From contig JBDRIF010000045.1 of assembly GCA_043816125.1 (NCBI GenBank), forward strand, positions 1-48,886: a DNA stretch of 48,886 nt, given 5' to 3'. Under the pieces are notes generated by a model. That model was not told the DNA's origin. It was given only the letters and a program-made list of their open reading frames with translations, and searched no databases. Both the position numbers and the translations under genes were made by a program. This stretch comes from a bacterium. Its GTDB lineage: Bacteria > Margulisbacteria > WOR-1 > O2-12-FULL-45-9. This document shows, piece by piece, positions 3,513 to 48,886 of the stretch. The number at the start of each line of letters is the position of its first letter. Positions within the stretch are counted from its first letter, which is position 1.

Positions 3513-4064
3513 TTATTCTCCCAAAATAGTTTTGACTGCCGCCATTAAATCTTCTGCAATTATATCAGGTTTGTTAGCTAAACGGTCAACCGTATGCAGT
3601 CCAGTTTTTACAAAAGCAGTCTTAGTTCCGGCATTTTTACCCGCGCCAATATCGCCATCCTTATCCCCAATCATCCAGGAATGAGCGAGATCAATATTAT
3701 GGTCTTTGGCCGCTTTTAGGAGCATCCCCGGATTCGGTTTTCGCAATTGGCTATCTTGTTTGTACGGGTAAATGCCGTGTTCGGCATGAAAAGGACAATA
3801 GTAAATACCTTCAATATAGGCGCCGTTGTTTAAGATAAGTCGCTGGATTGTTTTGTCGATTGTTTGTAACATATCTTCGCGAATTAAACCTCGGGCAATA
3901 CCAGCCTGATTTGTCACTATGATGATTTTGTAGCCGGCTTTATTTAGTAGTTTTATCGCTTCGAGTGAGCCGGGGATAAATTTGATATCAGCCGGATTGT
4001 TTAAATAGCCGACATCTTCGATTATCGTCCCATCGCGGTCGAGAAATACGGCCTTATCAGGCAT
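3513..4064 (-). CDS. gmhB: D,D-heptose 1,7-bisphosphate phosphatase (HAD-IIIA)
   Basis: ORF 3513..4196. Homology begins at MPDKAVFLDRDGTIIED (ATG 4064). Also IIIVTNQAGIARG and GDKDGDIGAG HAD motifs. 8-nt overlap with the gmhA stop. Confidence 0.85.
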   Translation of the reverse strand: MPDKAVFLDRDGTIIEDVGYLNNPADIKFIPGSLEAIKLLNKAGYKIIIVTNQAGIARGLIREDMLQTIDKTIQRLILNNGAYIEGIYYCPFHAEHGIYPYKQDSQLRKPNPGMLLKAAKDHNIDLAHSWMIGDKDGDIGAGKNAGTKTAFVKTGLHTVDRLANKPDIIAEDLMAAVKTILGE

Positions 4065-4781: not shown

Positions 4782-5789
4782 ATGAGTAAAAAATATAACG
4801 TATGTGTCTTGGGTGCGACCGGAATGGTTGGTAAAGAGATGATGAAAGTCCTCGAAGAAAGAGATTTTCCTGTAGGTCGTTTTCTTCCGTTAGCCTCTGA
4901 AAGAACTGCCGGTCAAAAGGTTACTTTCAAAGGGAAAGAATACGTTGTTGAAGAAGCAAAGCCTGAATCTTTTGACGGGATGGATATCGGCCTTTTTTCG
5001 GCCGGAGCCAAAGTTTCGGCCAAGTTTGCCCCCGAAGCGGCCAAACGAGATTGTATAGTAGTTGATAATACCAGCCATTTTCGGATGGACCCTGAAGTCC
5101 CTCTCGTCGTTCCCGAAGTCAATCCCCAGGCGATCAAACGCCATAAAGGGATCATTGCCAACCCCAATTGTTCAACTGCCCAGCTGGTTTTGCCTCTAAA
5201 ACCGATCTATGATGCTGTCGGGATCGAACGGATTGTTATTTCAACTTACCAATCGACTTCAGGGTGGGGGAAAGAGGCGATCGCCGAGATGTATGAGCAG
5301 ACCAAAACTTTGCTGGCCGATCCGCAGGCAGTTATTACTCCCAAATATATTTTTAAGCAGATTGCTTTTAATCTGGTTCCGCAGATCGATCAATTTGCCG
5401 ATAATGGATATACCAAAGAAGAGATCAAAATGGTGAATGAAACCAAAAAGATCTTTGAAGATGATACGATTAAAGTTACCGCTACCTGTGTTCGTGTTCC
5501 TGTCGCAATCGGTCACTCCGAATCGGTTAACATAAAGACCAGAAGAAAAATTTCCGTCGAAGAAGTGAGGAAGTTAATCGCCGGATTCCCGACTTGTGTG
5601 GTGATGGACGATCCGTCAAATGGCGTTTATCCGACGCCGATCGACTGTGCCGGCAAAAATGAAACCTTTGTCGGCCGAATCCGTGAAGATATTTCGCAGG
5701 AAAACGGGATCGAAATGTGGATCGTCTCCGATAACCTCCGCCGCGGCGCCGCGCTTAATGCTGTTTTGATTGCGGAAAGACTGCTTTAG
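4782..5789 (+). CDS. asd: aspartate-semialdehyde dehydrogenase
   Basis: 335 aa; VCVLGATGMVG NAD fold, IANPNCSTAQLV active-site Cys motif, C-terminal DNLRRGAALNAV. Confidence 0.92.
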   Translation: MSKKYNVCVLGATGMVGKEMMKVLEERDFPVGRFLPLASERTAGQKVTFKGKEYVVEEAKPESFDGMDIGLFSAGAKVSAKFAPEAAKRDCIVVDNTSHFRMDPEVPLVVPEVNPQAIKRHKGIIANPNCSTAQLVLPLKPIYDAVGIERIVISTYQSTSGWGKEAIAEMYEQTKTLLADPQAVITPKYIFKQIAFNLVPQIDQFADNGYTKEEIKMVNETKKIFEDDTIKVTATCVRVPVAIGHSESVNIKTRRKISVEEVRKLIAGFPTCVVMDDPSNGVYPTPIDCAGKNETFVGRIREDISQENGIEMWIVSDNLRRGAALNAVLIAERLL

Positions 5790-7423
5790 GTCGTTTCTTC
5801 TGGATAATTTAGACTGATCATGCCGTCTCTTCCAATGAGCCAAGCATTGTTGTAGTGTCCCGGGTTAAACAAGACAAGATCTATGCCGCTACTTGACCAT
5901 TCAAAACCGAGTTGGCGCATCTTCTTGATCAGTTCTCCTCTTGTTGTCTGATTTGTTTCTAGAGAAGATAGTGTTATTACAACAGCTTCGGGAATACCGG
6001 CTTTTTTGCGAGTTGTCGACCAGACAATTCCCTCTGGTGGAGTGGGGTATCTGTTACGCAAATCATAAACACTTTGTCCTATGACGATAAACTCTCCATG
6101 GAAGTTTAAGTAATACCGTGCATTTTCTCTCGATAAACCTGTTCCTGCGGAAATTTGATCTAGGGTCTGTTTGCCGTTGGTTGTCAGGAATTGCCAAATC
6201 CGGTTAAAACTTCCCTTAGATAATTTTGTCAGACAAAAACGATCCTCCTCAATAGTAACTCTTGGGTGATGGGCGAAGATCTCTCTCAGTTCGGTTTCCA
6301 GGACTGCTATTCCCAACTGAGTTCTTAACTGCGTTCGATAATCATTGAATGACCAGGAGCTTCTGCCGCTGGGGGAAGGTTGTGATGGATTCAAATCGAC
6401 TAATTGCTGATAATCAACCTCGGTTCGACAAAAAGCTGGATTAGCAATTTTTGCATTGCTGACATTAATGCCAGTCTCCAAGTTAATGACGGTTGCCTGA
6501 TCGGCATCAATCAAGATATGGTCTACAGCTCGTGGTGTGACTGTCATAATATCAATTTCTGTCGAGGCGATTCGGAGCGGGCCGAGAGTATCCCAGCAAA
6601 TTGCGATGAGAGGCCCTAAAAGAGGGGCTTCGTTTTCTGCCAACACCTGCAGACCGAGTAAGCTTTCTCTTAGTCCTCTGAGGGTGACTATCGGCGAGCT
6701 GGCTAGAGACCAGGAGAGAATGATTGATAATGTGCGCCACATCGGTAAGAGGTGTTCGTGGAGGAGAGAGCCCTTCAAAAACTGCATTTTTGAACTGTCA
6801 ATATTGGCGTGTAGTGACTGTCTGTTTTGTATGCCAAATTCAGTCATGATCTCTCTAGGTGTAAAGTAATGTCCGGGTTGCTGAAAACCATAGTACATTC
6901 CAATTATGGCTTTATCTCTTTCCGAGATATTTGGTGCTGTTTTCAATAAGCGAGTTACCCTCTCCAGAGTAACAAGTGAGATTTCTGCTGCTCTGTTAAT
7001 AGTAAATTCGCGTGCTCCGGGCAGCCCGAGTAACCCGGGGTCTCTTGTCAGGATTGCTTCGCCAACCACCAAACATCTCTCTTCGCCGCTTCTAAATCTA
7101 TTGGAGGCACGCGTGGCTAAACCAAAGGTGTTTAGGGTAGGGGAAATGTAAACTGTTTCGACAAGGGTCCCTCTTCTCCTGAGCTCTTTTATTACCGCTT
7201 CAGCAAAGGTTTTGGTCGGAAGCAATGAGGTAACCTGAGACGAACTTCTAACACTTGCATGCCTTTTCCTAGCTACTTTTATTGGTGTGACCGGAGGGAG
7301 GTCTACTACAGAGGAATGGTGTTGGACTACCCTTTTAACTTGTCGTGCTCGGGCTCTGGTTTGAGCGTTATCGTTGTCTCTTTTTGCCTGCCAGCAGCGG
7401 GCCATTCTTAATAATTCTGTCAT
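5786..7423 (-). CDS. hypothetical multi-HTH protein, paralog 1 (sigma-70 region-4-like HTH + HARE-HTH-like + C-terminal winged-helix-like)
   Basis: 545 aa. Aa ~165-212 ISERDKAIIGMYYGF..TPREIMTEFGI resembles sigma region 4. Aa ~404-460 end in HGEFIVIGQSVYDLRNRYP, close to the HARE-HTH terminal motif of RNAP delta (GRFLAL..TWGLRSWYP). Collinear paralog of 7439..8977. Its stop overlaps the asd stop (convergent). Confidence 0.6.
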   Translation of the reverse strand: MTELLRMARCWQAKRDNDNAQTRARARQVKRVVQHHSSVVDLPPVTPIKVARKRHASVRSSSQVTSLLPTKTFAEAVIKELRRRGTLVETVYISPTLNTFGLATRASNRFRSGEERCLVVGEAILTRDPGLLGLPGAREFTINRAAEISLVTLERVTRLLKTAPNISERDKAIIGMYYGFQQPGHYFTPREIMTEFGIQNRQSLHANIDSSKMQFLKGSLLHEHLLPMWRTLSIILSWSLASSPIVTLRGLRESLLGLQVLAENEAPLLGPLIAICWDTLGPLRIASTEIDIMTVTPRAVDHILIDADQATVINLETGINVSNAKIANPAFCRTEVDYQQLVDLNPSQPSPSGRSSWSFNDYRTQLRTQLGIAVLETELREIFAHHPRVTIEEDRFCLTKLSKGSFNRIWQFLTTNGKQTLDQISAGTGLSRENARYYLNFHGEFIVIGQSVYDLRNRYPTPPEGIVWSTTRKKAGIPEAVVITLSSLETNQTTRGELIKKMRQLGFEWSSSGIDLVLFNPGHYNNAWLIGRDGMISLNYPEETT

Positions 7424-7438: not shown

Positions 7439-8977
7439 TTAAACATAATATTTCCCTCTGCCTGTCTCCATAATGTGTGCTTTAATATCGTCGTATCTAT
7501 GAAGGACATTTTGCACTGCTTTAAGCGACCATCGGAAACCGAGTGATAAAGTTGACTGATGTATCTCTCTGGCAGTTAATGGTCCGCTAGCTCTGACCAG
7601 TGCCACATAAACTGCCGGAAATGCAAAAGCGGCACTTTGAATTTCAGGAACTGTTACGTATCTAAAAACGGAGGCGAACTTACTGCGGAGGTTATACCAG
7701 CCGTTTCCGACCAGGATGAATTCTTCTTTCTCGGCTTTTAGCAAGTTGGCTGTGGTCCCTTCTGTTAAGCCGACTGAGCGGGCTATAACTTCGTAATGTA
7801 ATGGACCTTCAAAATCAAGTAACTGTCTGACCCGGTCGAAATTGACCCAAATCATTTTAACAGTCCAAAAAGTATCTCCTTCGACTACAAAAGAGGGATG
7901 ATAATTAAAAAGCGAGCGGAGCGCTTCGATGGAAATGTTTAATTCGAGCCTCTCTGAGACGACTTTTTGGAAAGGTTTCAATTGCCAGTAGGCCCGTCGT
8001 TCCGGTTTCTCTCTGACTTCAAAATAGAGATCAATAATTCTTTGGTAGTCAGATGATTCGCGGCAAAAGGCGACAGCTTCTGCTCTGACATTCTCCTCCG
8101 CCTCCCCATCGAAAAGGCTAAGCAGTTTTACATCTCCCCCTCTAAGGAGCTCAAAATTAACGGCTTCGCCGGGTAAGGTTGGCAGGTCAATGTGACTCAT
8201 TGAGGCCCGAAATGGTCTGAGCCAATCCCAGATTAGGCCGAGCAGAGGAATAATCTGATTTTCGTTCTCCTCTGTAATAAGAGAAAAACTTTTTAAGTCT
8301 CTAATTAAATAATCTAAGGGATAAAGAATCTCTGTGGCCAAATGCCAACTAATGATGGTAGAAATAATTTCCCAGGTTGGGAGTAGGTAGTCGAACTTTA
8401 GCGGACTTCTGGATATTTCTGACTTGGTTCTGGCATCGACTCGTGCGGCTTTTGATGTCCCTATTTCCTGGCCAATAGCTGTAAAGGAGAGGGCTTTTCC
8501 GGAGTCATGAAAGCCGGTTCGTTTTTTGGCAACCTCAATACGTAGTTCTGTTTCACGTAGGCCCAATCGCTCAATAAGTTCGGTTATTCTGGACCAGTTC
8601 GAGATAGGAGATCGGCCGACATTGTTCGAATTATATCTGGCTGGCCAGAAAAGGGCTCTTTCGGTGCTTTGAGTTTGAATTATCCTTGGGCGAGTCCTCT
8701 CCATTATTCCCGGGGTTGGGATCAGTTCGTTAACATATATTGTGTCAACCTCTCTTCCTGTTTCAGTTAGGTAAGCTTCCATTTTTTCGATGAAAGCTTC
8801 TAACGTTATTGGTAAACGATAATTTAGCGAGGTCTTTAGTAACACATCTCTGCCATGAATATTAATTCGCCTTGGCAGCTTAGTTGGAGCGGATGCCGCG
8901 GATTGAGGATTAGCAACCCTTCTCGCCGCCCAGCATTGAGCCATGTTTCTAAGTGAGCTAACTTCTGTGGGTCTCAT
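7439..8977 (-). CDS. hypothetical multi-HTH protein, paralog 2
   Basis: 512 aa. Shares with 5786..7423 the motifs A(R/Q)CW.A.R at the N-terminus, LLP.W..(L/I)S.I(L/I)SW.LA, PLLG.....WD.L.P.R, FCR...DYQ..(V/I)DL, (F)..HP......(D)(R/T)F and EF(I)(V/L)(I/V)G..(V/W)Y.LR. Region-4-like LSFTAIGQEIGTSKAARVDARTKSEI. Confidence 0.6.
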   Translation of the reverse strand: MRPTEVSSLRNMAQCWAARRVANPQSAASAPTKLPRRINIHGRDVLLKTSLNYRLPITLEAFIEKMEAYLTETGREVDTIYVNELIPTPGIMERTRPRIIQTQSTERALFWPARYNSNNVGRSPISNWSRITELIERLGLRETELRIEVAKKRTGFHDSGKALSFTAIGQEIGTSKAARVDARTKSEISRSPLKFDYLLPTWEIISTIISWHLATEILYPLDYLIRDLKSFSLITEENENQIIPLLGLIWDWLRPFRASMSHIDLPTLPGEAVNFELLRGGDVKLLSLFDGEAEENVRAEAVAFCRESSDYQRIIDLYFEVREKPERRAYWQLKPFQKVVSERLELNISIEALRSLFNYHPSFVVEGDTFWTVKMIWVNFDRVRQLLDFEGPLHYEVIARSVGLTEGTTANLLKAEKEEFILVGNGWYNLRSKFASVFRYVTVPEIQSAAFAFPAVYVALVRASGPLTAREIHQSTLSLGFRWSLKAVQNVLHRYDDIKAHIMETGRGKYYV

Positions 8978-9679: not shown

Positions 9680-10668
9680 ATCCCGCAAGAAGATTAATAT
9701 TACCGGCTCTGATCCTAGTCTCCATTATCACTTTTGGGATAGTCGGTTTTATGCTTATTGAAGGGTGGGGCTTTTTCGACTCCGCCTATATGATGGTTAT
9801 CACTCTGTTTACTGTCGGCTTTCGTGAAGTTCATCCGTTGTCCAATGCCGGTAGATTGTTGACCATGTTTATTATTGTATCCGGTGTCGGTACGGCTATC
9901 TATTCTGTCGGGCAGATCGGAGAAATAATTGTTGAAGGCCAAATATTTGGTTACAGGAGGAAACAAAGAATGAAAGGAAAATTAAAAGAGTTGAAAGAGC
10001 ATTACATAATCTGTGGTTATGGGCGGGTGGGACATCAGGTGGCCGAAGAATTGCTTTTGGAAAATATGCCGATCGTGGTGGTTGATATTAAGCCGGAAAC
10101 TTCTGAAGAGTTAGAACCAAAAGGGATCCCTTATGTGGTTGCCGACTCGACTTCTAATGGCGTATTGAAGGAAGCAGGGGTTGAGCGGGCCAAAGGGTTG
10201 ATCGCCTGTGCCGATTCTGACATGGAGAATGTATTTGTCACTTTGTCTGCCAGAGCAGCCAATCCGGATATGCATATTGTCGCTAGGGCGAGCGGCAAAG
10301 ATGCGGAAGAAAAATTAAAATTGGCCGGGGCCAACAGAGTGATCTCTCCCTACTTTATTTCTGCCCGACGTATGGCCGGCTTGGCCACAAAACCGGTTGC
10401 CAGCGATTTTCTTGATACTGTTATGCATGGTGAACATTTAGCCTTCAGCTTAAGGGAAGTTCGCATACCGGATAATAGCAAAATTGTTGATAAATCTTTA
10501 GCTGATGCGGAGATCAAACATAAATCAGGGGCGTCTGTCCTGGCGATCCGTAAAATTGATGGTGGTTTCAACCTTCAACCTCTGGCCGCTTCCAAGATTG
10601 ATAAAGGGGACGTTTTAATCGTGATCGGGACGAGTGAACAACTGGATTTATTGGAGAAGATGCTTTAA
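9676..10668 (+). CDS. 2-TM ion channel with RCK (TrkA-N/TrkA-C) domains; non-canonical filter TVGFREV
   Basis: 330 aa. M1-pore helix-M2 layout, then IICGYGRVGHQVAEEL Rossmann (TrkA-N) and a TrkA-C-like C-terminus (KSLADAEIKHKSGASVLAIRK). Filter position reads TVGFREV (nt 9811..9831) instead of TVGYGD. Confidence 0.75.
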   Translation: MNPARRLILPALILVSIITFGIVGFMLIEGWGFFDSAYMMVITLFTVGFREVHPLSNAGRLLTMFIIVSGVGTAIYSVGQIGEIIVEGQIFGYRRKQRMKGKLKELKEHYIICGYGRVGHQVAEELLLENMPIVVVDIKPETSEELEPKGIPYVVADSTSNGVLKEAGVERAKGLIACADSDMENVFVTLSARAANPDMHIVARASGKDAEEKLKLAGANRVISPYFISARRMAGLATKPVASDFLDTVMHGEHLAFSLREVRIPDNSKIVDKSLADAEIKHKSGASVLAIRKIDGGFNLQPLAASKIDKGDVLIVIGTSEQLDLLEKML

Positions 10669-11788: not shown

Positions 11789-13381
11789 TTACGGGTTACT
11801 TACTACTTCTGTTGTTCCCCAGTCGGTTGTTTTCTTATAAGCACAATTTTGTACCGCATTGTCTCCCATGCCGCTGACTAAGCCGATGCAGCAGCTAAAT
11901 GAATCAGCGGACAAGAGGACATTGTTAGTCAGATCGGCATAACCGTAAACATATTGCTCGCCAATTGTATCAACAACAGTCGGGGTTACATAAATGCCAT
12001 CGCCAACTTCCCACTGGTAAGTTGCACCTTCGATATAGGCCCCGCTTTCATCTGTCGCCTTCTGCCATTTCAATGAGAAGATCGGGCTGGATACAGTAGT
12101 GTTATCCAAGACATTGTGCATGGCATCGTCAAGTCCGGCAGTAAGAAAATCGTCGGTCGAGCTGTATTGGCCGGAATAATAACCTTTTACACGAGGGATA
12201 TCCGCAACTGCAAAGTTGATCATCTTGACAATCTTTTCAGTCGTATCGTCGGAAAAAACAACATTGAAAGTTAATGTGTCCCCAGCCTTAATTATTGTTC
12301 CGGGGGCGATGTTGGCGCCGCCCAGTACGACCTGCCATCTGTCATCATCGGGCATATCATATAATGTATATCCGACCGACTGCCAGGTGCTGCCGACATC
12401 GGTGTTGTTGCCAGAATGGATTTGAGCGGAGGATGCCCAATCGGGCCCGGCTTCAAGTGTGACGCTGGAAATTGTATTTCCAGTTTTGGGGTGCATGGCG
12501 ATAATTACCCAATAGCCGGTCGGATTATTAACAACATCAGAAACCCCTTGGCCGTAAGGGACCTTAACGTTGGTCCACATGGCGGAATAGTCAATTTTAG
12601 AATCTGAAGCTGATAATGTTTCCATGGTGGCTAACCCATCAAATTCATCCATTACACCATCCCCATCATTATCTGCGTCAAAGATATTTGGTAAGCCGTC
12701 ACCGTCGCCGTCAATGATAGTTTCGTCGTAAGTTCCGCTGATATCAGCGTCGCTTCCTTTGCCAAAATTTCCTGCCCCTTTGGGGACTAATTCCTCACCT
12801 GATATGGCAGTAACCACAGTGGAGTTGTCCAAATAGTCAGTTGGAGTGACCGAAGGTTTTGCTGTGGATTTTTCTTCATCCAGATATAGATCTCCGATAT
12901 CCAGGCTTTCTACTGCTTCACCGGAAGGTTTTATTGCCATTACTGCGCCACCTTCGGTTGTGCCAAAAGCAATCGGTCCCACCAGTTTATTATCGGTATC
13001 GATAATTTGCAGGTAATATGATTCCTGGGAGGGGAGATTACTGATCGTGAAATCTCCATTCGCATCAAGAGCAGTTGAAACGTAAACTGTGCCTGTGTTT
13101 TTCCCTACAGCGGTAACCTTATACCCTTCCAGCGGAATCGGTGGGACAGCAAACGTTGTTGCTTGAACGGACAAGGGACCTGTTTGTTCCCAGTCCCAGC
13201 CAGATAATGTCCCACTGATAGTGGAAATTCCGCCAGTAACGGCACTGGTGGTGGTTGTGGTGCTAGTTGTGGTCGTCGTGGTGGTGGCTGTTGAGGTCGA
13301 GGTGGAAGTGCCGCAGCCGATGAGAGCGATGCCAGTAACAAGAAAGAGGACCAAAGACAGAACCAATGATGCTTTTTTCAT
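11789..13381 (-). CDS. surface lipoprotein with Thr-rich linker, CarboxypepD_reg-like domain and TSP3-type Ca-binding repeats
   Basis: ORF 11789..13393 starts at TTG. Preferred start is ATG 13381 (MKKASLVLSLVLFLVTGIALIGCG lipobox) with GGAGGG SD. Poly-T/S tract STSTSTATTTTTTSTTTTTS. DANGDFTISNLP. DGDGDGLPNIFDADNDGDGVMDEFD. Confidence 0.65.
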   Translation of the reverse strand: MKKASLVLSLVLFLVTGIALIGCGTSTSTSTATTTTTTTSTTTTTSAVTGGISTISGTLSGWDWEQTGPLSVQATTFAVPPIPLEGYKVTAVGKNTGTVYVSTALDANGDFTISNLPSQESYYLQIIDTDNKLVGPIAFGTTEGGAVMAIKPSGEAVESLDIGDLYLDEEKSTAKPSVTPTDYLDNSTVVTAISGEELVPKGAGNFGKGSDADISGTYDETIIDGDGDGLPNIFDADNDGDGVMDEFDGLATMETLSASDSKIDYSAMWTNVKVPYGQGVSDVVNNPTGYWVIIAMHPKTGNTISSVTLEAGPDWASSAQIHSGNNTDVGSTWQSVGYTLYDMPDDDRWQVVLGGANIAPGTIIKAGDTLTFNVVFSDDTTEKIVKMINFAVADIPRVKGYYSGQYSSTDDFLTAGLDDAMHNVLDNTTVSSPIFSLKWQKATDESGAYIEGATYQWEVGDGIYVTPTVVDTIGEQYVYGYADLTNNVLLSADSFSCCIGLVSGMGDNAVQNCAYKKTTDWGTTEVVSNP

Positions 13382-13449
13382 TTTTCCCTCCAATAAAATC
13401 AGAATAGTATAATCCTAGCAATAAATACTGCACTGTCAACCACTTTTTG

Positions 13450-13462: not shown

Positions 13463-14884
13463 ATGATGGTTTTAAAACTCTATAACACTTTAACCAAACA
13501 AAAAGAAGAATTTCAGCCGTTGGATGGCAAAAATGTCCGGATGTATGTCTGCGGGATTACCCCTTATGATGAAACCCACTTAGGTCATGGCCGTGCTTAT
13601 GTTACTTTTGATATCGTGAGGCGTTGGCTGGAATATTCCGGTTATAAGGTTACTTATGTGCAAAATGTGACGGATGTGGACGACAAAATAATTGCTAAGG
13701 CGAGGGACGAGGGACGAGAGACGAAGGACGTGACTGAACAATACACAAAATCTTATCTAGAGGTGATGGCCCAATTAAATGTTCGACCGGCTGACAAGTA
13801 TCCGAAGGCGACGGAACATATTAAAGAGATGGTGAGATGGATAGAGGGGTTGATGGAGAGCGGACACGCTTATGAAGTAGATGGTGATGTCTATTTCGAA
13901 GTCGCAAAATTTAACGATTACGGCAAACTTTCAAACCGTAAACTCGACGATATGATTTCCGGGGCCAGAGTCGCCGTTGATGAACGGAAGAAATCACCGT
14001 TAGATTTTGCTTTGTGGAAGAAGGCGAAAGAGGGGGAGCCGAGTTGGGATTCGCCGTGGGGGAAGGGGCGTCCGGGTTGGCACATCGAATGTTCGGTGAT
14101 GTCGACCAAATATCTGGGGGAGAGTTTTGATATCCATGGCGGCGGGTTAGATCTTGTTTTTCCTCATCATGAGAATGAAATTGCCCAAACAGAAGCCGCA
14201 ACTAGTAAACCCTGGGTTAAATATTGGCTGCACAACGGTTTTGTAAATGTTGATAAGCAGAAGATGTCAAAATCTCTGGGGAACTTCTTTACTTTAAAAG
14301 ATGTTTTCAAACAATATGATCCGATGGTTGTCCGGTTCTTCTTATTGTCTACTCATTACCGGAGCCCGATAAATTATAGTCAGGTCGAATTGAATCAGGC
14401 TAAGGAAGCCTATGGCAGGATTACTCGGTTTATTCGCGATCTCGATTTCTTGATCTCAAAATCAGGGCAAAATTGTCCGACTTCCGAGAAGAACGATCTT
14501 GACGACGACTTTCGCGGGTTTAAGAATTCATTTTCTGCGGCGATGGATGACGATTTTAATACAGCCAGCGCCATTGCTGTAATTTTCGATTTGGTTAAAT
14601 ATTGTAACAAAGCAATTGCTGATGGCCAGGACGAGCAGGGGTGTTTGGCTAAGATGAGGGCTTTGACAATAGAGTTGTGCGGCATACTCGGATTAACAAC
14701 CGAACTCCGAACTCAAAACTCTGAACTCGACACTAAAGAGATCGAGCAATTAATTACAAAACGTGAAGTCGCCAGAAAAGAAAAAGATTTCGCTCAAGCG
14801 GACAATATTAAACTTCAACTGGCGGAGATCGGAATTGTTTTGGAAGACACCCCTCAGGGAACCCGGTGGGCGCAAGAAACTTAG
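13463..14884 (+). CDS. cysS: cysteine--tRNA ligase
   Basis: 473 aa; class I HIGH (HLGHGRAY) and KMSKS (KMSKSLGN) motifs. GWHIECS zinc-site motif. Confidence 0.93.
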   Translation: MMVLKLYNTLTKQKEEFQPLDGKNVRMYVCGITPYDETHLGHGRAYVTFDIVRRWLEYSGYKVTYVQNVTDVDDKIIAKARDEGRETKDVTEQYTKSYLEVMAQLNVRPADKYPKATEHIKEMVRWIEGLMESGHAYEVDGDVYFEVAKFNDYGKLSNRKLDDMISGARVAVDERKKSPLDFALWKKAKEGEPSWDSPWGKGRPGWHIECSVMSTKYLGESFDIHGGGLDLVFPHHENEIAQTEAATSKPWVKYWLHNGFVNVDKQKMSKSLGNFFTLKDVFKQYDPMVVRFFLLSTHYRSPINYSQVELNQAKEAYGRITRFIRDLDFLISKSGQNCPTSEKNDLDDDFRGFKNSFSAAMDDDFNTASAIAVIFDLVKYCNKAIADGQDEQGCLAKMRALTIELCGILGLTTELRTQNSELDTKEIEQLITKREVARKEKDFAQADNIKLQLAEIGIVLEDTPQGTRWAQET

Positions 14885-14893
14885 GCCGGGAAA

Positions 14894-16537
14894 TTATTCG
14901 TCCAATAGTTGCTGTGCCAATAACTCTTCATCAACATCAGGCAGTTTCCTGGTGCGGGCCTGGCGAATACTTTTTACAATCCCAACCAGTGTTAGTTCTC
15001 TGTGTTCTAAAAGTATTTTTTCCAATGGGCCAAATTTTTGGTCAAATTTTTCGTCAGGCATGTCGGCATCATTGGCGGAAGGTTTAATTTCTAGCTCAAT
15101 GTCATCTTTCAGTTTGTTTTTTAATCTAACATTTACTCTTGACTCTTTACTAGGCGACAGTTGGCATTTATTGTCAATAATTATTTGCACTTGAGCGGCA
15201 TATTCTGGCCCAATTGGTAAATTAGCTAAGGCTTTAAATGCCGTTTCTATCGCGGCCTCTTGTATTGGCGTGGGAACCGGTTTTACTCTAAGGGGAGGGG
15301 TTATTCTTTCTACTTGGAGTCCGTATCCGGCTGCTGCAGTTTCAACTGTTGGGGTTTTTGCTTTCGCTTCAGGATCAGCTAATATTCTAGAATATTCTGC
15401 TCTAATTGTTTCTGGGTTGGTGTCGGCACGATCTGGATCCAGTAGTATTTTTATCTTTCCTTTTGTTCTCAGATCTCTATTAAAAATATCAATGATAAGC
15501 TTTTTGCCAATAAGTCGAGGGGAAATAAATCTGTTATCGGCAACAAAACAGGGAGAGGCTGTAGCTGCTAAGGCGAGCTCGACTTTTCTGGCAAATGGGA
15601 CGACTGAACTATCTAAGGCCTCCCTGATTAATCTAATAGAAGGAGCTTTATCATCCGGCTGATCGGGAAGAGTGAAATCTCCTGCTAATGCTCGATTTTG
15701 GTCTCCTTCGTCGTAGGCTTTTGGCTGAGGAACGTTTGGCGGAGAAGCTTTTGGGACCGCTGTCGGATCGGCAATAATTCTATTGTATTCTTCTCTAATT
15801 GCCTGAGGGGTAGTGCTGGTTCTGTCGGCCTCTAATCTTATCGTAATCTTTTCTCTGTTTCGTAGTTCTTGATTTAATATCTCTATGATTGTCAGTTTGC
15901 CAACAAGGTCTGGGCGAATGAATCTATTATCAGCGACAAAAGCTTCTGACGATGTGACAGCTATGGCAATCTCGACTTTTCTGGTTATAGAGACTTCTCT
16001 GCTATCTAATGCGGCTTTAATCAATCTAACAGAAGGGAGAGTATCTTGCTCATTATCGGGCGAGGTAAGTTTTCCTTCAAGCGCAGCATTTTGAGCATTC
16101 TCATCTGTGATTTTGGCCTGCCTTAACTCGTTGAAATGAGTTTGTAATTGCTCTGGTGTGTATTTGTTCGCTGTGGGTAACATTGGCAGGCAATTTAGTT
16201 CAATTAAATAAGCATTAAAAACTCTGATAATTGTGGAGAGGGTGAAAGCCTCGGGATAGGCGGCTCTCCCTTGAGGGAAAAAGAGATCTGATTTTAAGAC
16301 TGCTTCGGCAATGGCTATTCTTCTTTCGGGTAGATTGCCAGGCGATTTCATGGCCTCTCTTAATAATCTCCCAGAAGGCAATTTATTGCTAGCAGTACCA
16401 GGCTTTGAGAATTCGCCGGCTAAGGCTCTCTCTTGAAATCTCTGTGATGTGATTATTTCAAAAGTCAGCTTTATTCTCCCTGAACTTGTTGTCGGATAGT
16501 CGTAATTAAGAGGTGCTTTTCTTGGCGGTATTCTCAT
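14894..16537 (-). CDS. hypothetical protein with three internal ~110-130-aa repeats
   Basis: ORF 14894..16651. The first 38 codons are antisense to the duplicated serS 5' end, so I prefer ATG 16537 (MRIPPRKAPLNY). Repeats at nt ~16112-16429, 15764-16096 and 15371-15700 share ALAG(E/D)F..P....K.PS.RLI.EAL.S......RKVE.A.A.T.S..FVADNRFI.P.L.GK..II.I.N..LR...KI.I.L..DR..T.P..IR.EY.RI.ADP. No recognisable family. Confidence 0.6.
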   Translation of the reverse strand: MRIPPRKAPLNYDYPTTSSGRIKLTFEIITSQRFQERALAGEFSKPGTASNKLPSGRLLREAMKSPGNLPERRIAIAEAVLKSDLFFPQGRAAYPEAFTLSTIIRVFNAYLIELNCLPMLPTANKYTPEQLQTHFNELRQAKITDENAQNAALEGKLTSPDNEQDTLPSVRLIKAALDSREVSITRKVEIAIAVTSSEAFVADNRFIRPDLVGKLTIIEILNQELRNREKITIRLEADRTSTTPQAIREEYNRIIADPTAVPKASPPNVPQPKAYDEGDQNRALAGDFTLPDQPDDKAPSIRLIREALDSSVVPFARKVELALAATASPCFVADNRFISPRLIGKKLIIDIFNRDLRTKGKIKILLDPDRADTNPETIRAEYSRILADPEAKAKTPTVETAAAGYGLQVERITPPLRVKPVPTPIQEAAIETAFKALANLPIGPEYAAQVQIIIDNKCQLSPSKESRVNVRLKNKLKDDIELEIKPSANDADMPDEKFDQKFGPLEKILLEHRELTLVGIVKSIRQARTRKLPDVDEELLAQQLLDE

Positions 16538-16583
16538 GTGTTGTTTTCGCAGCTTTTTTGTAATAATTTCACTCCAATATGAA

Positions 16584-16663
16584 TTGACCCCTATTTTTTT
16601 CTTGTGTATACTTGGAATAATAATGCTTGACCCAAAACTGATCAGAAACAATCCGGAAGCTGT
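16584..16663 (+). repeat. 80-bp direct repeat, copy 1: duplicate of the serS promoter plus first 14 codons
   Basis: Aligns with 17922..18001 with 4 mismatches by manual alignment. Retains TTGACC-N17-TATACT (16584..16612) and an ATG at 16623 opening a 15-codon remnant [15 protein letters not shown]. Confidence 0.85.
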
Positions 16664-16666
16664 GAA

Positions 16667-17839
16667 TTAGTGAACTCTTGAAATTTCCTGAATATTTCTT
16701 CGGGCTTGGTCGATTCGAGGTTGGAAGGCTTGAGAACCTTGTTGCCATCGTTGGAAAATTTCAATCAATTTTTCTTGCGTCTCAATAGCTATTGCCCAGT
16801 CCTCAGCTTTTTTGGCAATTGAGTAAGCGTGATCAAGCGTGCCTATTTTGGGGGCTAGCCGGAAGGCTTCTGTAATTAATGGCAATGCTTGACGAGGGTC
16901 AGGAAGGGAGGGTGCATTAGTCTCAAATATCAATGCGAGGGCGCTGTCTTCTATATTATCTATCCCCCCCCATTTCATTATCCTTTTTCTTATGTCAGCT
17001 AACACAGCTGGGGCTACAACACCGGAAAATTGATCTAAATAATTTTCTGTTTCCCTAACTGCTGGATCAACCACAGTTATTTCTAATGGATGGATGGGGG
17101 AGATGTTCTTGGCTGGGCTTCCGGGCTCGACAATTAGAGCAGTAATAGCCTTATCGATTGCATTACTTTGTTCAGAAGAAATCCTCAAATACATGGCCGT
17201 GAGAGCGGAGTTTAACGCCCTGTCGTCCCTCGGCTGGCATTCTATCCGGGCTTTCGCAAAGAGATCAAGATGCTGATCATCCATCTGCCAGAAAGCATCA
17301 AGTAAGGCTGCGAGTGTGTTGAGGCCTTTTTCACTGGTAGCGGCGCGAATCATTAATGTTCTGACGGCTTGTGCCGGGTTGGCCGAATTCAATACTAGCG
17401 AAGCCAAACGTTTAGGTGACTGGTCATCCATTCGATCCAATATCTTCTGGGCGGATTGGCTGTTATGCAAATATGCTTCATCAAAAATATATTGAGTGGC
17501 AGCCTCGGCTGCAGTGGCTTGTTCCGGGGAGCCAAAAGCTGCGGTATATTCCAGCACAAATACAACTAAGTCAAGGTCGCATTTTTTTATAATATTTCCA
17601 AGTTTGCCTTCCTCGCCAGTTTGTGCTAAAAAAGCTGCCAGAGTAAATATGACGTGGGATTGCTGTGGAGTGGGAACTGCTGCGCCAGTGATCAAGTCTG
17701 CTTCTTGCTCCAGCCCTTCAAGCAATGAAAATTCGCGTTGAGGATCTCTTACAAACCGCTGGTAAGCGGCTTGATATGCTTGATCGCAATCAGGATTAGC
17801 TGATGTTGAATAACCACATTCTCCGGGAATGCTTATCAT
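16667..17839 (-). CDS. hypothetical alpha-helical protein (no recognisable motifs)
   Basis: 390 aa ORF; GGAGG about 10 nt upstream of ATG 17839. Exactly bracketed by the two 80-bp repeat copies. Confidence 0.6.
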   Translation of the reverse strand: MISIPGECGYSTSANPDCDQAYQAAYQRFVRDPQREFSLLEGLEQEADLITGAAVPTPQQSHVIFTLAAFLAQTGEEGKLGNIIKKCDLDLVVFVLEYTAAFGSPEQATAAEAATQYIFDEAYLHNSQSAQKILDRMDDQSPKRLASLVLNSANPAQAVRTLMIRAATSEKGLNTLAALLDAFWQMDDQHLDLFAKARIECQPRDDRALNSALTAMYLRISSEQSNAIDKAITALIVEPGSPAKNISPIHPLEITVVDPAVRETENYLDQFSGVVAPAVLADIRKRIMKWGGIDNIEDSALALIFETNAPSLPDPRQALPLITEAFRLAPKIGTLDHAYSIAKKAEDWAIAIETQEKLIEIFQRWQQGSQAFQPRIDQARRNIQEISRVH

Positions 17840-17890
17840 GCAAGTCGAACCTCCATACGAACTTATCGTGTTATCATGCTAAAAACTTGC

Positions 17891-17911
17891 GCCTGCCTCC
17901 GGTAGGCAGGC
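17891..17911 (-). terminator. perfect 8-bp GC-rich hairpin, followed on the minus strand by a T5 run 5 nt downstream (terminator-like)
   Basis: gcctgcct-ccggt-aggcaggc. On the minus strand it is followed by gcaagttttt. Lies between the serS promoter and the start of the 390-aa gene. Confidence 0.35.
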
Positions 17912-17921
17912 CAAAATGGAT

Positions 17922-17950
17922 TTGACCCTCATTTTTTTCTTGTGTATACT
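17922..17950 (+). promoter_or_regulatory. sigma70-type promoter of serS: TTGACC-N17-TATACT
   Basis: TTGACC 17922..17927, 17-nt spacer, TATACT 17945..17950. ATG is 10 nt downstream with no SD. Confidence 0.6.
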
Positions 17951-18001
17951 TGAAATAATCATGCTTGACCCAAAACTGATCAGAAACAATCCGGAAGCTG
18001 T
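17922..18001 (+). repeat. 80-bp direct repeat, copy 2 (functional serS promoter and 5' coding end)
   Basis: See copy 1 at 16584..16663. Confidence 0.85.
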
Positions 18002-19241
18002 CAAAAAAGCCTTAAAAAATCGCAAGGCCGATGCTTCTTTGGTTGATAAGTTCCTGGCCATAGATGAAGAATGGCGAAAGTTGATCATGGAGACGGATGA
18101 ATTAAAAGCTAAACGTAATACCGTTTCCGACCAGGTGGCTAAAAAGAAAAAGGCTAAAGAACCGACCGATGAATTAATTGCCGATATGAAACTTGTTTCT
18201 ACAAAAATTAAGGAACTAGATGAGCAACAGAGGGCGGTTGAGGAAAAACTCAACACTATCGCACTGCAAATGCCAAATACTCCGCATCTTTCTGTCCCTA
18301 TCGGTGTTGATTCGCGTGATAATATTGAAGTCCGGTCCTGGGGGGAGAAGACAAAATTCGATTTCCACCCTTTGGCTCACGATGAGCTGGGGAGAAGACT
18401 CGATATCCTCGATTTTGAGCGGGCCGCCAAGATTTCCGGCGCCAGATTTGTCGTGAATAAAGGGTTGGGGGCACAATTGGAGCGGGCATTAATCAATTTT
18501 ATGCTCGACTTGCATACCAAGGAGCATGGCTATACCGAAGTAATAGCGCCTGTTTTGGTTAATGCCAAAGCAATGCAGGGGACAGGGCAGTTACCAAAAT
18601 TCGCAGAAGACTTATTTAAAATGAAGGATGATCCTTTATATTTAATTCCGACCGCCGAAGTCTCGGTTACCAATATGCATGCCGATGAAATATTGACTGC
18701 CGATCAACTTCCGCTAAAATATGTTTGTTACTCAACTTGTTTTCGCCGTGAAGCGGGGTCGTATGGGAAAGATACCAAAGGGATCATCCGTCAGCATCAA
18801 TTTAACAAAGTTGAATTGGTTAAATTTTCTGAGCCAGATAAATCATACGAAGAACTTGAACTTTTGACGAAAGATGCGGAGATCGTTCTTCAAAAACTTG
18901 GTCTCCCTTATCGGGTTGTTCAACTCTCTACCGGTGATCTCGGGTTTTCAGCGGCAAAAACTTATGATCTCGAAGTTTGGTTCCCTTCCGAGAATAGATA
19001 TCGCGAAATATCTTCTTGTTCAAATTTTGAATCTTTTCAGGCGAGAAGGGCGGGGATCCGCTTTCGAGCTGATGCCAAGGCAAAAACGGAGTATTTACAT
19101 ACATTAAACGGTTCCGGCCTGGCAGTAGGTCGGACTTTAGCGGCAATCTTGGAAAATTTCCAGCAAAAAGATGGCTCGATCGAAATCCCTCAAGTTTTAC
19201 ATCAATATATGGGAAATACACGCAAGATTTCCCCGTCTTAA
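17961..19241 (+). CDS. serS: serine--tRNA ligase
   Basis: ORF 17916..19241. The canonical N-terminus [18 protein letters not shown] starts at ATG 17961. Class II motifs [21 protein letters not shown] and [18 protein letters not shown]. Confidence 0.93.
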
Positions 19242-19260
19242 TCCGATAAATATTATAGCC

Positions 19261-47973: not shown

Positions 47974-48886
47974 TCCTCACCCCCTCCCTCGCGTTGCTCG
48001 GGTGAGGTATTTGATATTCTTTTTTCTTCTCTTTGCCATTATTGTCTTCTCTTCTTTGTTTCAGCCGGCCAATCCTTTTGGGCAAAATCCTGTGCGAATA
48101 ATTGTGCCTAAAGGGGCGACAAGTTATTCGGTTGCCAGGATGCTTGAAGAAGAAGAGTTAGTCAAGGTAAACAGTAGTTTCACGTTTATGCTCAAGGTCC
48201 TCGGTTGGACCAGAAGTATTCAGGCTGGAGAATATGAAATAATTCCGGCAGATTCTCTTTTATCTATTCTCCTGAAATTTAAAAATGGTCGGGTCGTTGA
48301 GCCGAAGCAGATCGCCGTAACTTTTCCCGAAGGGTCCTCTATTTATAACATGGGAGAAATCTTAAGGGAACAGAGAATAGGGATTGGAGAACAGTTTAAA
48401 GGTCTGGTCGAGAGGGGGATTAAGGCCGATTTGAGAAACAGACATTGGGGGATATTTAAATATATCCCTTCAGAATCGCTGGAAGGGTATCTGTATCCGG
48501 ATACTTATTATTTGGGGCAAGAGGTTGGGTTGGAGCCGCTGGTAGAGTTAATGCTGCGAAGATTTGAGGATGTTGTTATCCCTTTTTGGGAGGGTGCGCA
48601 GAAAGATACTAAGTATAATCTTCATGAGATATTGACTCTCGCTTCGATCATTGAAAAAGAGGCGCAAAAGCCGGAGGAGAGAGCGATTATCTCTTCTGTT
48701 TATCACAATCGTTTAAAGATTAGAATGCATTTGGGGGCCGATCCTACGATCAAATATGCCTTGGAGCGTCCGACAAAAAAAGTTTATATCAATCAATTAA
48801 ATGTCGATTCACCTTACAATACTTATAAGCGTTACGGTTTGCCGCCAGGGCCGATATGTAATCCGGGGATTGAGTCGATTAGAGCT
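47960..48886 (+). CDS. mltG: endolytic murein transglycosylase MltG/YceG (3' end beyond window)
   Basis: Open to the right edge, so absent from the ORF track. My translation: MQRSNPHPLPRVARVRYLIFFFLLFAIIVFSS...VRIIVPKGATSYSVARMLEEEELV...IQAGEYEI...LEGYLYPDTYY...ILTLASIIEKEA...YNTYKRYGLPPGPICNPG, the YceG signature. In-frame GTG 48002 or TTG 48011, after the hairpin, are alternative starts. Confidence 0.85.
   Translation, partial: MQRSNPHPLPRVARVRYLIFFFLLFAIIVFSSLFQPANPFGQNPVRIIVPKGATSYSVARMLEEEELVKVNSSFTFMLKVLGWTRSIQAGEYEIIPADSLLSILLKFKNGRVVEPKQIAVTFPEGSSIYNMGEILREQRIGIGEQFKGLVERGIKADLRNRHWGIFKYIPSESLEGYLYPDTYYLGQEVGLEPLVELMLRRFEDVVIPFWEGAQKDTKYNLHEILTLASIIEKEAQKPEERAIISSVYHNRLKIRMHLGADPTIKYALERPTKKVYINQLNVDSPYNTYKRYGLPPGPICNPGIESIRA
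47975..48007. other. GC-rich hairpin (8-bp stem, 17-nt loop) immediately after the ruvX stop
   Basis: cctcaccc-cctccctcgcgttgctc-gggtgagg, followed by tatttgatattctttttt. Lies within the first 16 codons of the longest mltG reading frame. Confidence 0.5.

Follow-up and report, generated by a model that had tools for sequence, protein, structure and literature searches.

A duplicated serS promoter and gene start in a Margulisbacteria genome as a probable scar of integrase-free, homology-anchored gene acquisition

Results

The serS promoter and gene start are present twice around an orphan gene

We analysed a stretch of DNA of 48,886 nucleotides (nt), hereafter the window, which is the entire contig JBDRIF010000045.1 (C45 in our numbering of the contigs) of the GenBank assembly GCA_043816125.1, a metagenome bin of 162 contigs and 1.41 Mb from a bacterium of the WOR-1 lineage of Margulisbacteria (O2-12-FULL-45-9). 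In this window two aminoacyl-tRNA synthetase genes on the plus strand, cysS and serS, are separated by 3.1 kb holding two orphan genes on the minus strand, and the promoter and first 14 codons of serS are present twice, once at serS itself and once between the two orphan genes. The conserved left flank is cysS (13463..14884, plus strand, 473 amino acids (aa); Pfam tRNA-synt_1e, E = 1.6e-139) and the conserved right flank is serS (17961..19241, plus strand, 426 aa), whose product, SerRS, matches the Pfam families Seryl_tRNA_N (residues 1-108) and tRNA-synt_2b and is 64-78% identical to SerRS of Margulisbacteria and Saganbacteria. A previous reading of the window, made from the sequence only, had taken the right copy of the repeat as the true serS start, and this is correct because Seryl_tRNA_N aligns from residue 1.

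Aligned without gaps, the direct repeats span positions 16581-16666 and 17919-18004 (86 nt, 80/86 identical), with mismatches between the left and the right copy at 16583, 16591, 16592, 16615, 16622 and 16664 and a longest exact shared run of 41 nt. With gaps allowed, blastn widens the pair to 16574-16666 and 17911-18004 (94 alignment columns with 91.5% identity; 93-94 nt, with one indel). The sequence-only reading had reported an 80-bp repeat with four mismatches, which is exactly what falls within the frame 16584-16663 / 17922-18001, and the repeat turned out to be even longer. The copies are spaced by 1338 nt. In the whole genome the repeat sequence is present at these two sites only (E = 1e-39 and 2e-31), and therefore it is not a product of chance.

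Both copies contain the motif TTGACC-N17-TATACT, as previously claimed, followed 10 nt later by ATGCTTGACC...GCTGT. The right copy (17911..18004, plus strand; −35 hexamer at 17922-17927 and −10 hexamer at 17945-17950) holds the predicted working promoter of serS and its codons 1-14, and the left copy (16574..16666, plus strand; −35 hexamer at 16584-16589 and −10 hexamer at 16607-16612) holds the same promoter and the same 14 codons, stranded upstream. Both promoter hexamers are free of mismatches between the copies, and the sole coding difference, at 16664, is synonymous (GTG/GTC, Val14). Direct reading of the left copy gives a 15-codon remnant of leaderless type (16623..16670, plus strand), with its ATG 10 nt after the −10 hexamer, whose TAG (16668-16670) overlaps by 2 nt the TAA of the first orphan gene (16667-16669, minus strand), just as the earlier description had it. 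Also the open reading frame (ORF) extensions that it had considered artefactual, namely the first 38 codons of ORF 14894..16651 and ORF 17879..18256, are such, since both frames cross the repeat copies.

Among the relatives, an element of the form TTGAC(C/G)-spacer-TTGTGTATACT precedes serS wherever serS is not directly behind cysS or behind another gene of the same strand, and it ends 7-10 nt before the ATG in three genomes (G004, G001 and G003) and in one genome of a second family (G023). In the genome analysed here TGTGTATACT was found nowhere else beyond the serS promoter copies. We considered TTGACC-N17-TATACT, on the basis of these comparisons, as a predicted promoter that is serS-specific and conserved across genera. 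Since serS has no Shine-Dalgarno sequence and the promoter is close to the ATG, serS seems to be leaderless or nearly so. The left edge of the repeat corresponds to the edge of this conserved promoter element. Across genera the element is kept as TTGAC(C/G)-N17-(TGTG)TATACT, including the T-rich spacer (window 17922-17961; loci L006, L010, L012 and L017), and the conserved spacer hints at a putative site for the binding of a regulator.

Orphan genes and hairpin between cysS and serS

The first orphan gene, p390 (16667..17839, minus strand, 390 aa), is the only gene between the repeat copies. Its own frame is codon-like, with an in-frame codon score of 0.153 that is the best of the six frames and low with respect to the long ORFs of the genome (0.266 +/- 0.076), and a GGAGG ribosome-binding site (17850..17854, minus strand) can be read 10 nt before its ATG; p390 is predicted to code for a protein. 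No homolog of p390 was found in 5.8 billion clusters, in 1.84 billion representative proteins (full phmmer search) or in 40 relatives, and no family match was obtained in Pfam, PHROGs, PADLOC or NCBIfam. The single-sequence structure model is all-alpha and of low confidence (pLDDT 52.6). A phage or plasmid origin of p390 was considered and dropped, as neither PHROGs nor the phage and plasmid collections gave a match.

The second orphan gene, p547 (14894..16537, minus strand, public gene call), runs for 547 aa from the ATG at 16537. Its open frame (p585) continues through the left repeat copy up to a TTG at 16651, from which the spurious extension of 38 codons arises. The in-frame codon score of p547 is 0.193, again the best of the six frames; the protein is a singleton in the 5.8e9 clusters and has no match in Pfam, PHROGs, PADLOC or NCBIfam. 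When compared directly, p390 and p585 are unrelated to each other. The GC content of the inserts is not distinct, and the codon scores are low yet inside the range of the genome. As a separate observation, the 547-aa protein has long internal repeats with the motif ...RALAGEF/DF...APS[IV]RLI[RK][EA]AL...VADNRFI...

At the left edge of the right repeat copy there is a strong, GC-rich hairpin of 8 bp (17891..17911), with a T-run on the minus strand only, upstream of the p390 start; the plus strand has no U-tract. The sequence-only reading had described the 1258 bp between the copies as one gene plus a terminator-like hairpin. Both the gene and the hairpin are present, but the hairpin is not the terminator of p390, because its T-run lies upstream of that gene. 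The hairpin is single-copy in the genome and has no match in Rfam; a multi-copy hairpin element was excluded, given that it is not repeated in the genome.

The cysS-serS gap in relatives

In five relatives (genomes G006, G011, G012 and G010, and contig L026) cysS adjoins serS with a gap of 0-20 bp. Elsewhere the gap is occupied by different genes. A MNT/HepT toxin-antitoxin pair lies there in three cases, at 6417-7098 of L107 (genome G008), at 5659-6000 of L024 and at 3688-5666 of L112 (genome G007, in which an ISL3 transposase is present too), all with serS turned to the plus strand; a GH16 hydrolase and a PAP2 gene occupy the gap in G002, and a 534-aa unknown gene does so in G003. The block upstream of the gap, formed by a methyltransferase-like gene, a channel gene, a 168-aa gene, cysE and cysS, is kept in the family, and the states of the gap are interspersed on the SerRS tree. 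Because the gap is empty or differently filled in relatives, it is a hotspot of variation across the family, and all of the 3.1 kb found here, both orphan genes included, is cargo specific to this lineage.

These comparisons change in part what had been proposed before. That a gene was inserted into or next to the 5′ end of serS is right insofar as there is an insertion scar at that place, but the cargo is the whole 3.1-kb gap with both orphan genes and not p390 alone. The empty site that was expected in relatives exists at the level of the family, in the five cases in which cysS adjoins serS, but no empty site of the same genus was found. In 105 other serS loci we found no second copy of the serS start.

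Beside this gap, between cysE and cysS, the window carries a gene for a 534-aa threonine-rich lipoprotein-like protein (11789-13393, minus strand), with a 41%-identical counterpart in the same position in G011 only (L111 2537-4132). It is another patchy insertion in the conserved block.

Further repeats of gene ends in the same genome

We compared the genome with itself for short direct repeats that bracket cargo. Beyond the serS pair it has at least 12 of them, 36-180 nt in length and with 78-100% identity between copies that lie 0.7-5 kb from each other. They bracket one or two recombinase-free genes, and most of them visibly duplicate the start or the stop of a conserved gene; several end exactly at an ATG or at a stop codon. 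Gene starts are duplicated for ileS (C70, 260-314 and 1531-1585) and for a rsmD-like gene (C43, 20025-20073 and 20753-20801). Gene stops are duplicated for ilvD and for an ilvN-like gene (C50, two pairs, 3806-3873 with 4871-4938 and 8856-8895 with 10121-10160), as well as in C77 (3083-3128 and 4353-4398), C22 (1441-1476 and 3658-3693), C146 (905-957 and 2046-2095) and C156 (647-826 and 1501-1680). A stack of three copies is found in C118 (554-625, 2177-2290 and 4953-5023), while the repeats of C97 (5303-5398 and 6221-6316), C17 (1388-1454 and 6412-6478) and C64 (1641-1762 and 4768-4888) were not identified as gene ends. The cargo consists of orphan genes, AAA_14/DUF4143 ATPases, a NTase/HEPN-like pair and a PIN toxin, and never includes a recombinase.

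For the 11 pairs overlapping coding sequence, we counted the differences between copies by codon position. They were 13, 8 and 54 at the first, second and third position, respectively (p = 9e-12 versus a uniform distribution), and among the 60 differing codons 46 were synonymous and 14 non-synonymous (p = 9e-5 versus an expectation of 50% synonymous). Since the differences are mostly synonymous, this set points to copies that evolved as working genes in separate lineages and were joined afterwards, rather than to duplication in situ.

The NTase/HEPN-like toxin-antitoxin cassette of C50 allowed the same comparison to be extended to other genomes. It has a patchy distribution (15/41 relatives), and in 5/12 loci examined (this genome's own included), each of the five in a different genome, repeats of a gene end flank it, with four gene ends involved in total: the ilvD stop in this genome, the tsaD start in G019 (L129) and G024 (L128), a rluB-like start of 14 codons in G029 (L123) and a gene stop in G009 (L122). 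The two tsaD junctions, which belong to two genera, are unequal, being at about codon 47 in G019 and at codon 16 in G024, and this variation in position within one gene speaks against a fixed core of an attachment (att) site. The identity of the cassette is also out of step with phylogeny, reaching 67% in another family.

Discussion

A displaced gene end as the probable origin of the repeat

We consider the repeat as the scar of an integrase-free, homology-anchored "terminal displacement" of the serS 5′ end, to which we assign a probability of roughly 0.6. What such a displacement leaves behind is found at this locus, that is, a stranded serS end beside cargo and an intact serS that carries the other copy. 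Precisely, DNA from a related lineage, in which other cargo lay beside its own serS promoter, would have recombined with the resident chromosome, with serS and its conserved promoter as the anchor, while the second junction would be an illegitimate join at codon 14/15 of serS, at the stop codon of p390. Alternatively, the substrate could have been a small circle, made of cargo and a fragment of the serS start, that entered by a single crossover of the Campbell type. Linear events of homology-facilitated illegitimate recombination mostly bring deletions and not short duplications. In either case the outcome would be two homeologous copies of the promoter and 14 codons, of which one heads serS while the second has been left 1.3 kb upstream, next to the older neighbour. 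A mirror-image event, which brought p585 and the remnant, would be equally possible, and the newcomer may be either of the two orphan genes. The donor, the order of arrival of the orphan genes, the choice between a linear and a circular substrate and the uptake of DNA by transformation are thus parts of the scheme that we infer.

Two features of the repeat are explained in this way. Only duplications that include the promoter and the start codon leave the essential serS gene intact, which accounts for the content of the repeat. Furthermore, a left edge located at the edge of the conserved promoter is expected if the repeat stops where the homology between donor and recipient stops. As a probable consequence of the displacement, the stranded promoter, in which no conserved position has been lost, would be active. 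It would then produce the 15-codon ORF, without a leader, and antisense RNA to p390 that could perhaps extend into serS. Given the intact hexamers, the antisense or tandem-promoter arrangement suggested by the sequence-only reading is plausible.

Several observations weigh on the other side. The serS pair alone is thin, since the 14 codons differ by a single synonymous change and the promoter part by 5-7 changes, and the sparing of the hexamers by these changes has a probability of 0.17 by chance. Nothing above 78% SerRS identity emerged from metagenome scans, from the search in 5.8e9 clusters or from exact-protein look-ups, and no genome or contig of the same genus was found there; with the closest SerRS at 78%, no empty site of the same genus and no donor arrangement came to light. 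In the sister case of ileS (C70), lemA is not beside ileS in four relatives, and hence the ancestral adjacency was not seen. The density of repeats in 80 unrelated serS loci is dominated by tRNA-Ser paralogs and so does not serve as a control for how common these scars are in other genomes. Finally, ComEC and DprA are present in the genome, but they are near-universal, with matches in 10/14 control genomes, and hence support DNA uptake weakly.

Could an integrative element have left the repeat?

A different origin, that we judge unlikely, is a site-specific integrative element of which only a remnant is left: its attP site would have carried a replacement for the serS promoter and 5′ end, and the integrase and most of the element would have been deleted later. 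A directly repeated gene end of which one copy is intact is how attL and attR classically look, and at serS the direct repeats do come from the end of the target gene and the gene is restored. Elements of this kind are e14 and phage 21 in the icd gene of E. coli and the dusA-specific islands, which restore the dusA 5′ end; all are integrase elements carrying a replacement gene end. They resemble the serS locus in having direct repeats of the end of a protein gene, with one intact copy and one pseudo-end, and copies that differ mainly at silent positions. Synonymous differences like those described above would be expected for element-borne gene ends as well.

The genome does contain one true case. 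In C137 a 5.2-kb island is bracketed by 55-nt repeats of a tRNA 3′ end (994-1048 and 6196-6250) and has a tyrosine integrase inside; this is the only integrase-bearing island seen in the genome. Three tyrosine recombinases (PF00589) are encoded in total, none of them on the contig that forms the window, and we take the two outside the C137 island to be Xer-like. This leaves one non-Xer integrase against at least 12 gene-end sites, so that under this origin every cassette would need to have lost its enzyme.

At serS, no integrase, excisionase or phage gene is in or beside the insert, and no recombinase domain is present in p390 or p585. While e14, phage 21 and the dusA islands have an integrase of their own and a defined core, we found no integrase here, each insert consists of one or two genes and many different sites are used. 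The unequal junctions of the tsaD cassettes (codon 16 versus about codon 47) are against a fixed site too, and serS is not used recurrently, given the absence of second copies in the 105 other serS loci.

Possible duplication in situ

We give a rather small chance to the possibility that the foreign fragment entered at a widely staggered break, or through template switching during replication, with 86-94 bp of the resident sequence ending up on either side of it, and that the copies then diverged. The geometry, a target duplication around a single insert, would fit, and the serS copies differ little in their coding part. However, in the genome-wide set of repeats 54/75 differences are at third positions and 46/60 codons are synonymous, which an unconstrained remnant would not show. 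The repeat edges at start codons, stop codons or the promoter edge are those predicted by the limits of homology and not by random staggered cuts. In addition, a divergence of 7-9% would need a long neutral decay, during which the 390-aa orphan frame stayed open. The sequence-only reading had left the choice between recombination and capture by replication slippage; recombination is the best explanation, while slippage or any in-situ duplication is disfavoured by the synonymous differences.

That reading had also noted that the duplication is far longer than those made by transposases, and indeed 86-94 bp compares with about 2-14 bp. We rejected a transposon or insertion sequence (IS) on account of this length, of the lack of inverted repeats at the insert ends and of the lack of a transposase domain in p390. 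An integron cassette was discarded as well, in that the repeat is made of the serS promoter and coding start rather than of an attC-like palindrome and no integrase is nearby, and a known RNA element was discarded for want of a match in Rfam. Lastly, the 1338-nt spacing is close to the length of the promoter plus serS, as would be left by a decayed tandem serS, but 16667-17918 aligned globally with 18005-19256 gave z = 0.24 versus shuffles and tblastn gave no match.

A possible regulatory role of the stranded promoter

The left promoter might instead have been kept by selection, either to repress p390 through antisense RNA or as a distal second promoter of serS, a view to which we give little credit. 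Its hexamers, 17-nt spacer and ATG spacing are all intact, and the plus-strand hairpin has no U-tract, so that read-through towards serS is conceivable. Nevertheless, that five changes leave both hexamers untouched is not significant (p = 0.17). A serS gene without a Shine-Dalgarno sequence and leaderless in appearance would be translated poorly from a long upstream transcript. Comparable remnants at other sites of the genome consist of 3′ ends that lack a promoter, and hence a scar can exist without any function.

Assembly

Throughout the genome, dozens of contig ends share overlaps of exactly 141 nt with 100% identity, and we take these to be the mark of a de Bruijn assembly with a largest k of 141 (the MEGAHIT default). 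As an example, 48746-48886 of the window is identical to 4488-4628 of contig C22, reversed; such overlaps expose neighbours in the assembly graph. Because k = 141 exceeds the 94-nt repeat, each copy was spanned by k-mers that reach into unique sequence at either end. In addition, positions 16622 and 17960, at which the copies differ, are no more than 49 nt away from the inner junctions and tie each copy to its own flank. Although the genome is a 162-contig metagenome bin and the copies have a 41-nt exact stretch in common, an artefact in which a small circle, or another strain with the same serS start, was misjoined or threaded into the contig at the repeat is very improbable, given the final k, the variants that tie each copy to its flank, the fact that a shared 41-mer at small k branches and ends unitigs and does not join them, and the diverged copies in a dozen similar structures on other contigs.

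Comparison with known systems

The terminal displacement proposed here has partial counterparts. For rhs genes, the displacement of C-terminal ends is proposed to proceed by homologous recombination through circular intermediates (Jackson et al. 2009, PMC2935791). In the type VI secretion system (T6SS) clusters of Vibrio cholerae, stacked orphan immunity genes in effector/immunity arrays have been ascribed to homology-facilitated illegitimate recombination (Kirchberger et al. 2017, PMC5361080). As at serS, in both a new module brings a fresh gene end and the old end is stranded beside older cargo, without any dedicated recombinase. There, however, it is the variable toxic 3′ tip that is displaced and the protein is diversified, whereas here an invariant 5′ end and its promoter are displaced, the protein is unchanged and the cargo consists of unrelated orphan genes.

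The minimal mobile elements of Neisseria, as described in PMC3787668 (Saunders & Snyder 2002; Snyder et al. 2007), are similar in that different whole-gene cargo lies between the same two conserved genes, here cysS and serS, without mobility genes in this genome and with exchange through the flanks. Variable gene content between the same flanks in relatives, by which such elements are defined, is what we found at the cysS-serS gap. They differ in that a double crossover in both flanks leaves no scar, whereas at serS one non-homologous junction leaves a duplicated gene end; moreover, natural transformation is not known from this lineage.

In homology-facilitated illegitimate recombination of transformable bacteria, as cited in PMC5361080 (de Vries & Wackernagel 2002; Prudhomme et al. 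2002; Meier & Wackernagel 2003), one homologous anchor and one illegitimate join trap foreign DNA, and the same combination is proposed for serS. In the insertion-duplication of Campbell type, a circle with a fragment of a gene end integrates by a single crossover, the fragment is duplicated and the gene remains intact. Unlike the serS scar, these two processes are laboratory observations. We found no published description of such footprints arising naturally at the housekeeping genes of a lineage that has not been cultivated.

Conclusions

If the interpretation as terminal displacement is true, the serS repeat records in nature a one-sided acquisition of genes anchored by homology. Such a process is known mainly from laboratory transformation and from polymorphic-toxin loci; in this case it would have struck an essential aminoacyl-tRNA synthetase gene, at its promoter and start. 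Stranded gene ends flag recent insertions and their boundaries, and they also mislead gene callers through pseudo-starts and false extensions of ORFs. A stranded intact promoter would, in addition, be a ready source of antisense transcription against newly acquired genes.

Together with a dozen sister scars, the repeat would suggest how an uncultivated lineage poor in integrases and transposases gains orphan genes and toxin-antitoxin modules. A broader idea, which we put forward only tentatively and which may well prove wrong, is that in Margulisbacteria, and perhaps in other small genomes poor in mobile elements, most accessory genes enter without a recombinase of their own. Small cassettes, made of toxin-antitoxin pairs, AAA_14/DUF4143 ATPases or orphan genes, would bring along 25-180 nt copied from a housekeeping gene at its start or stop, and this copy would offer the recombination of the host a portable site of homology, so that they would form a general class of mobile cassettes dependent on homology. 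Each insertion would then strand a gene end, cassettes could stack, and the serS scar, with its complete promoter, would be one instance of this.

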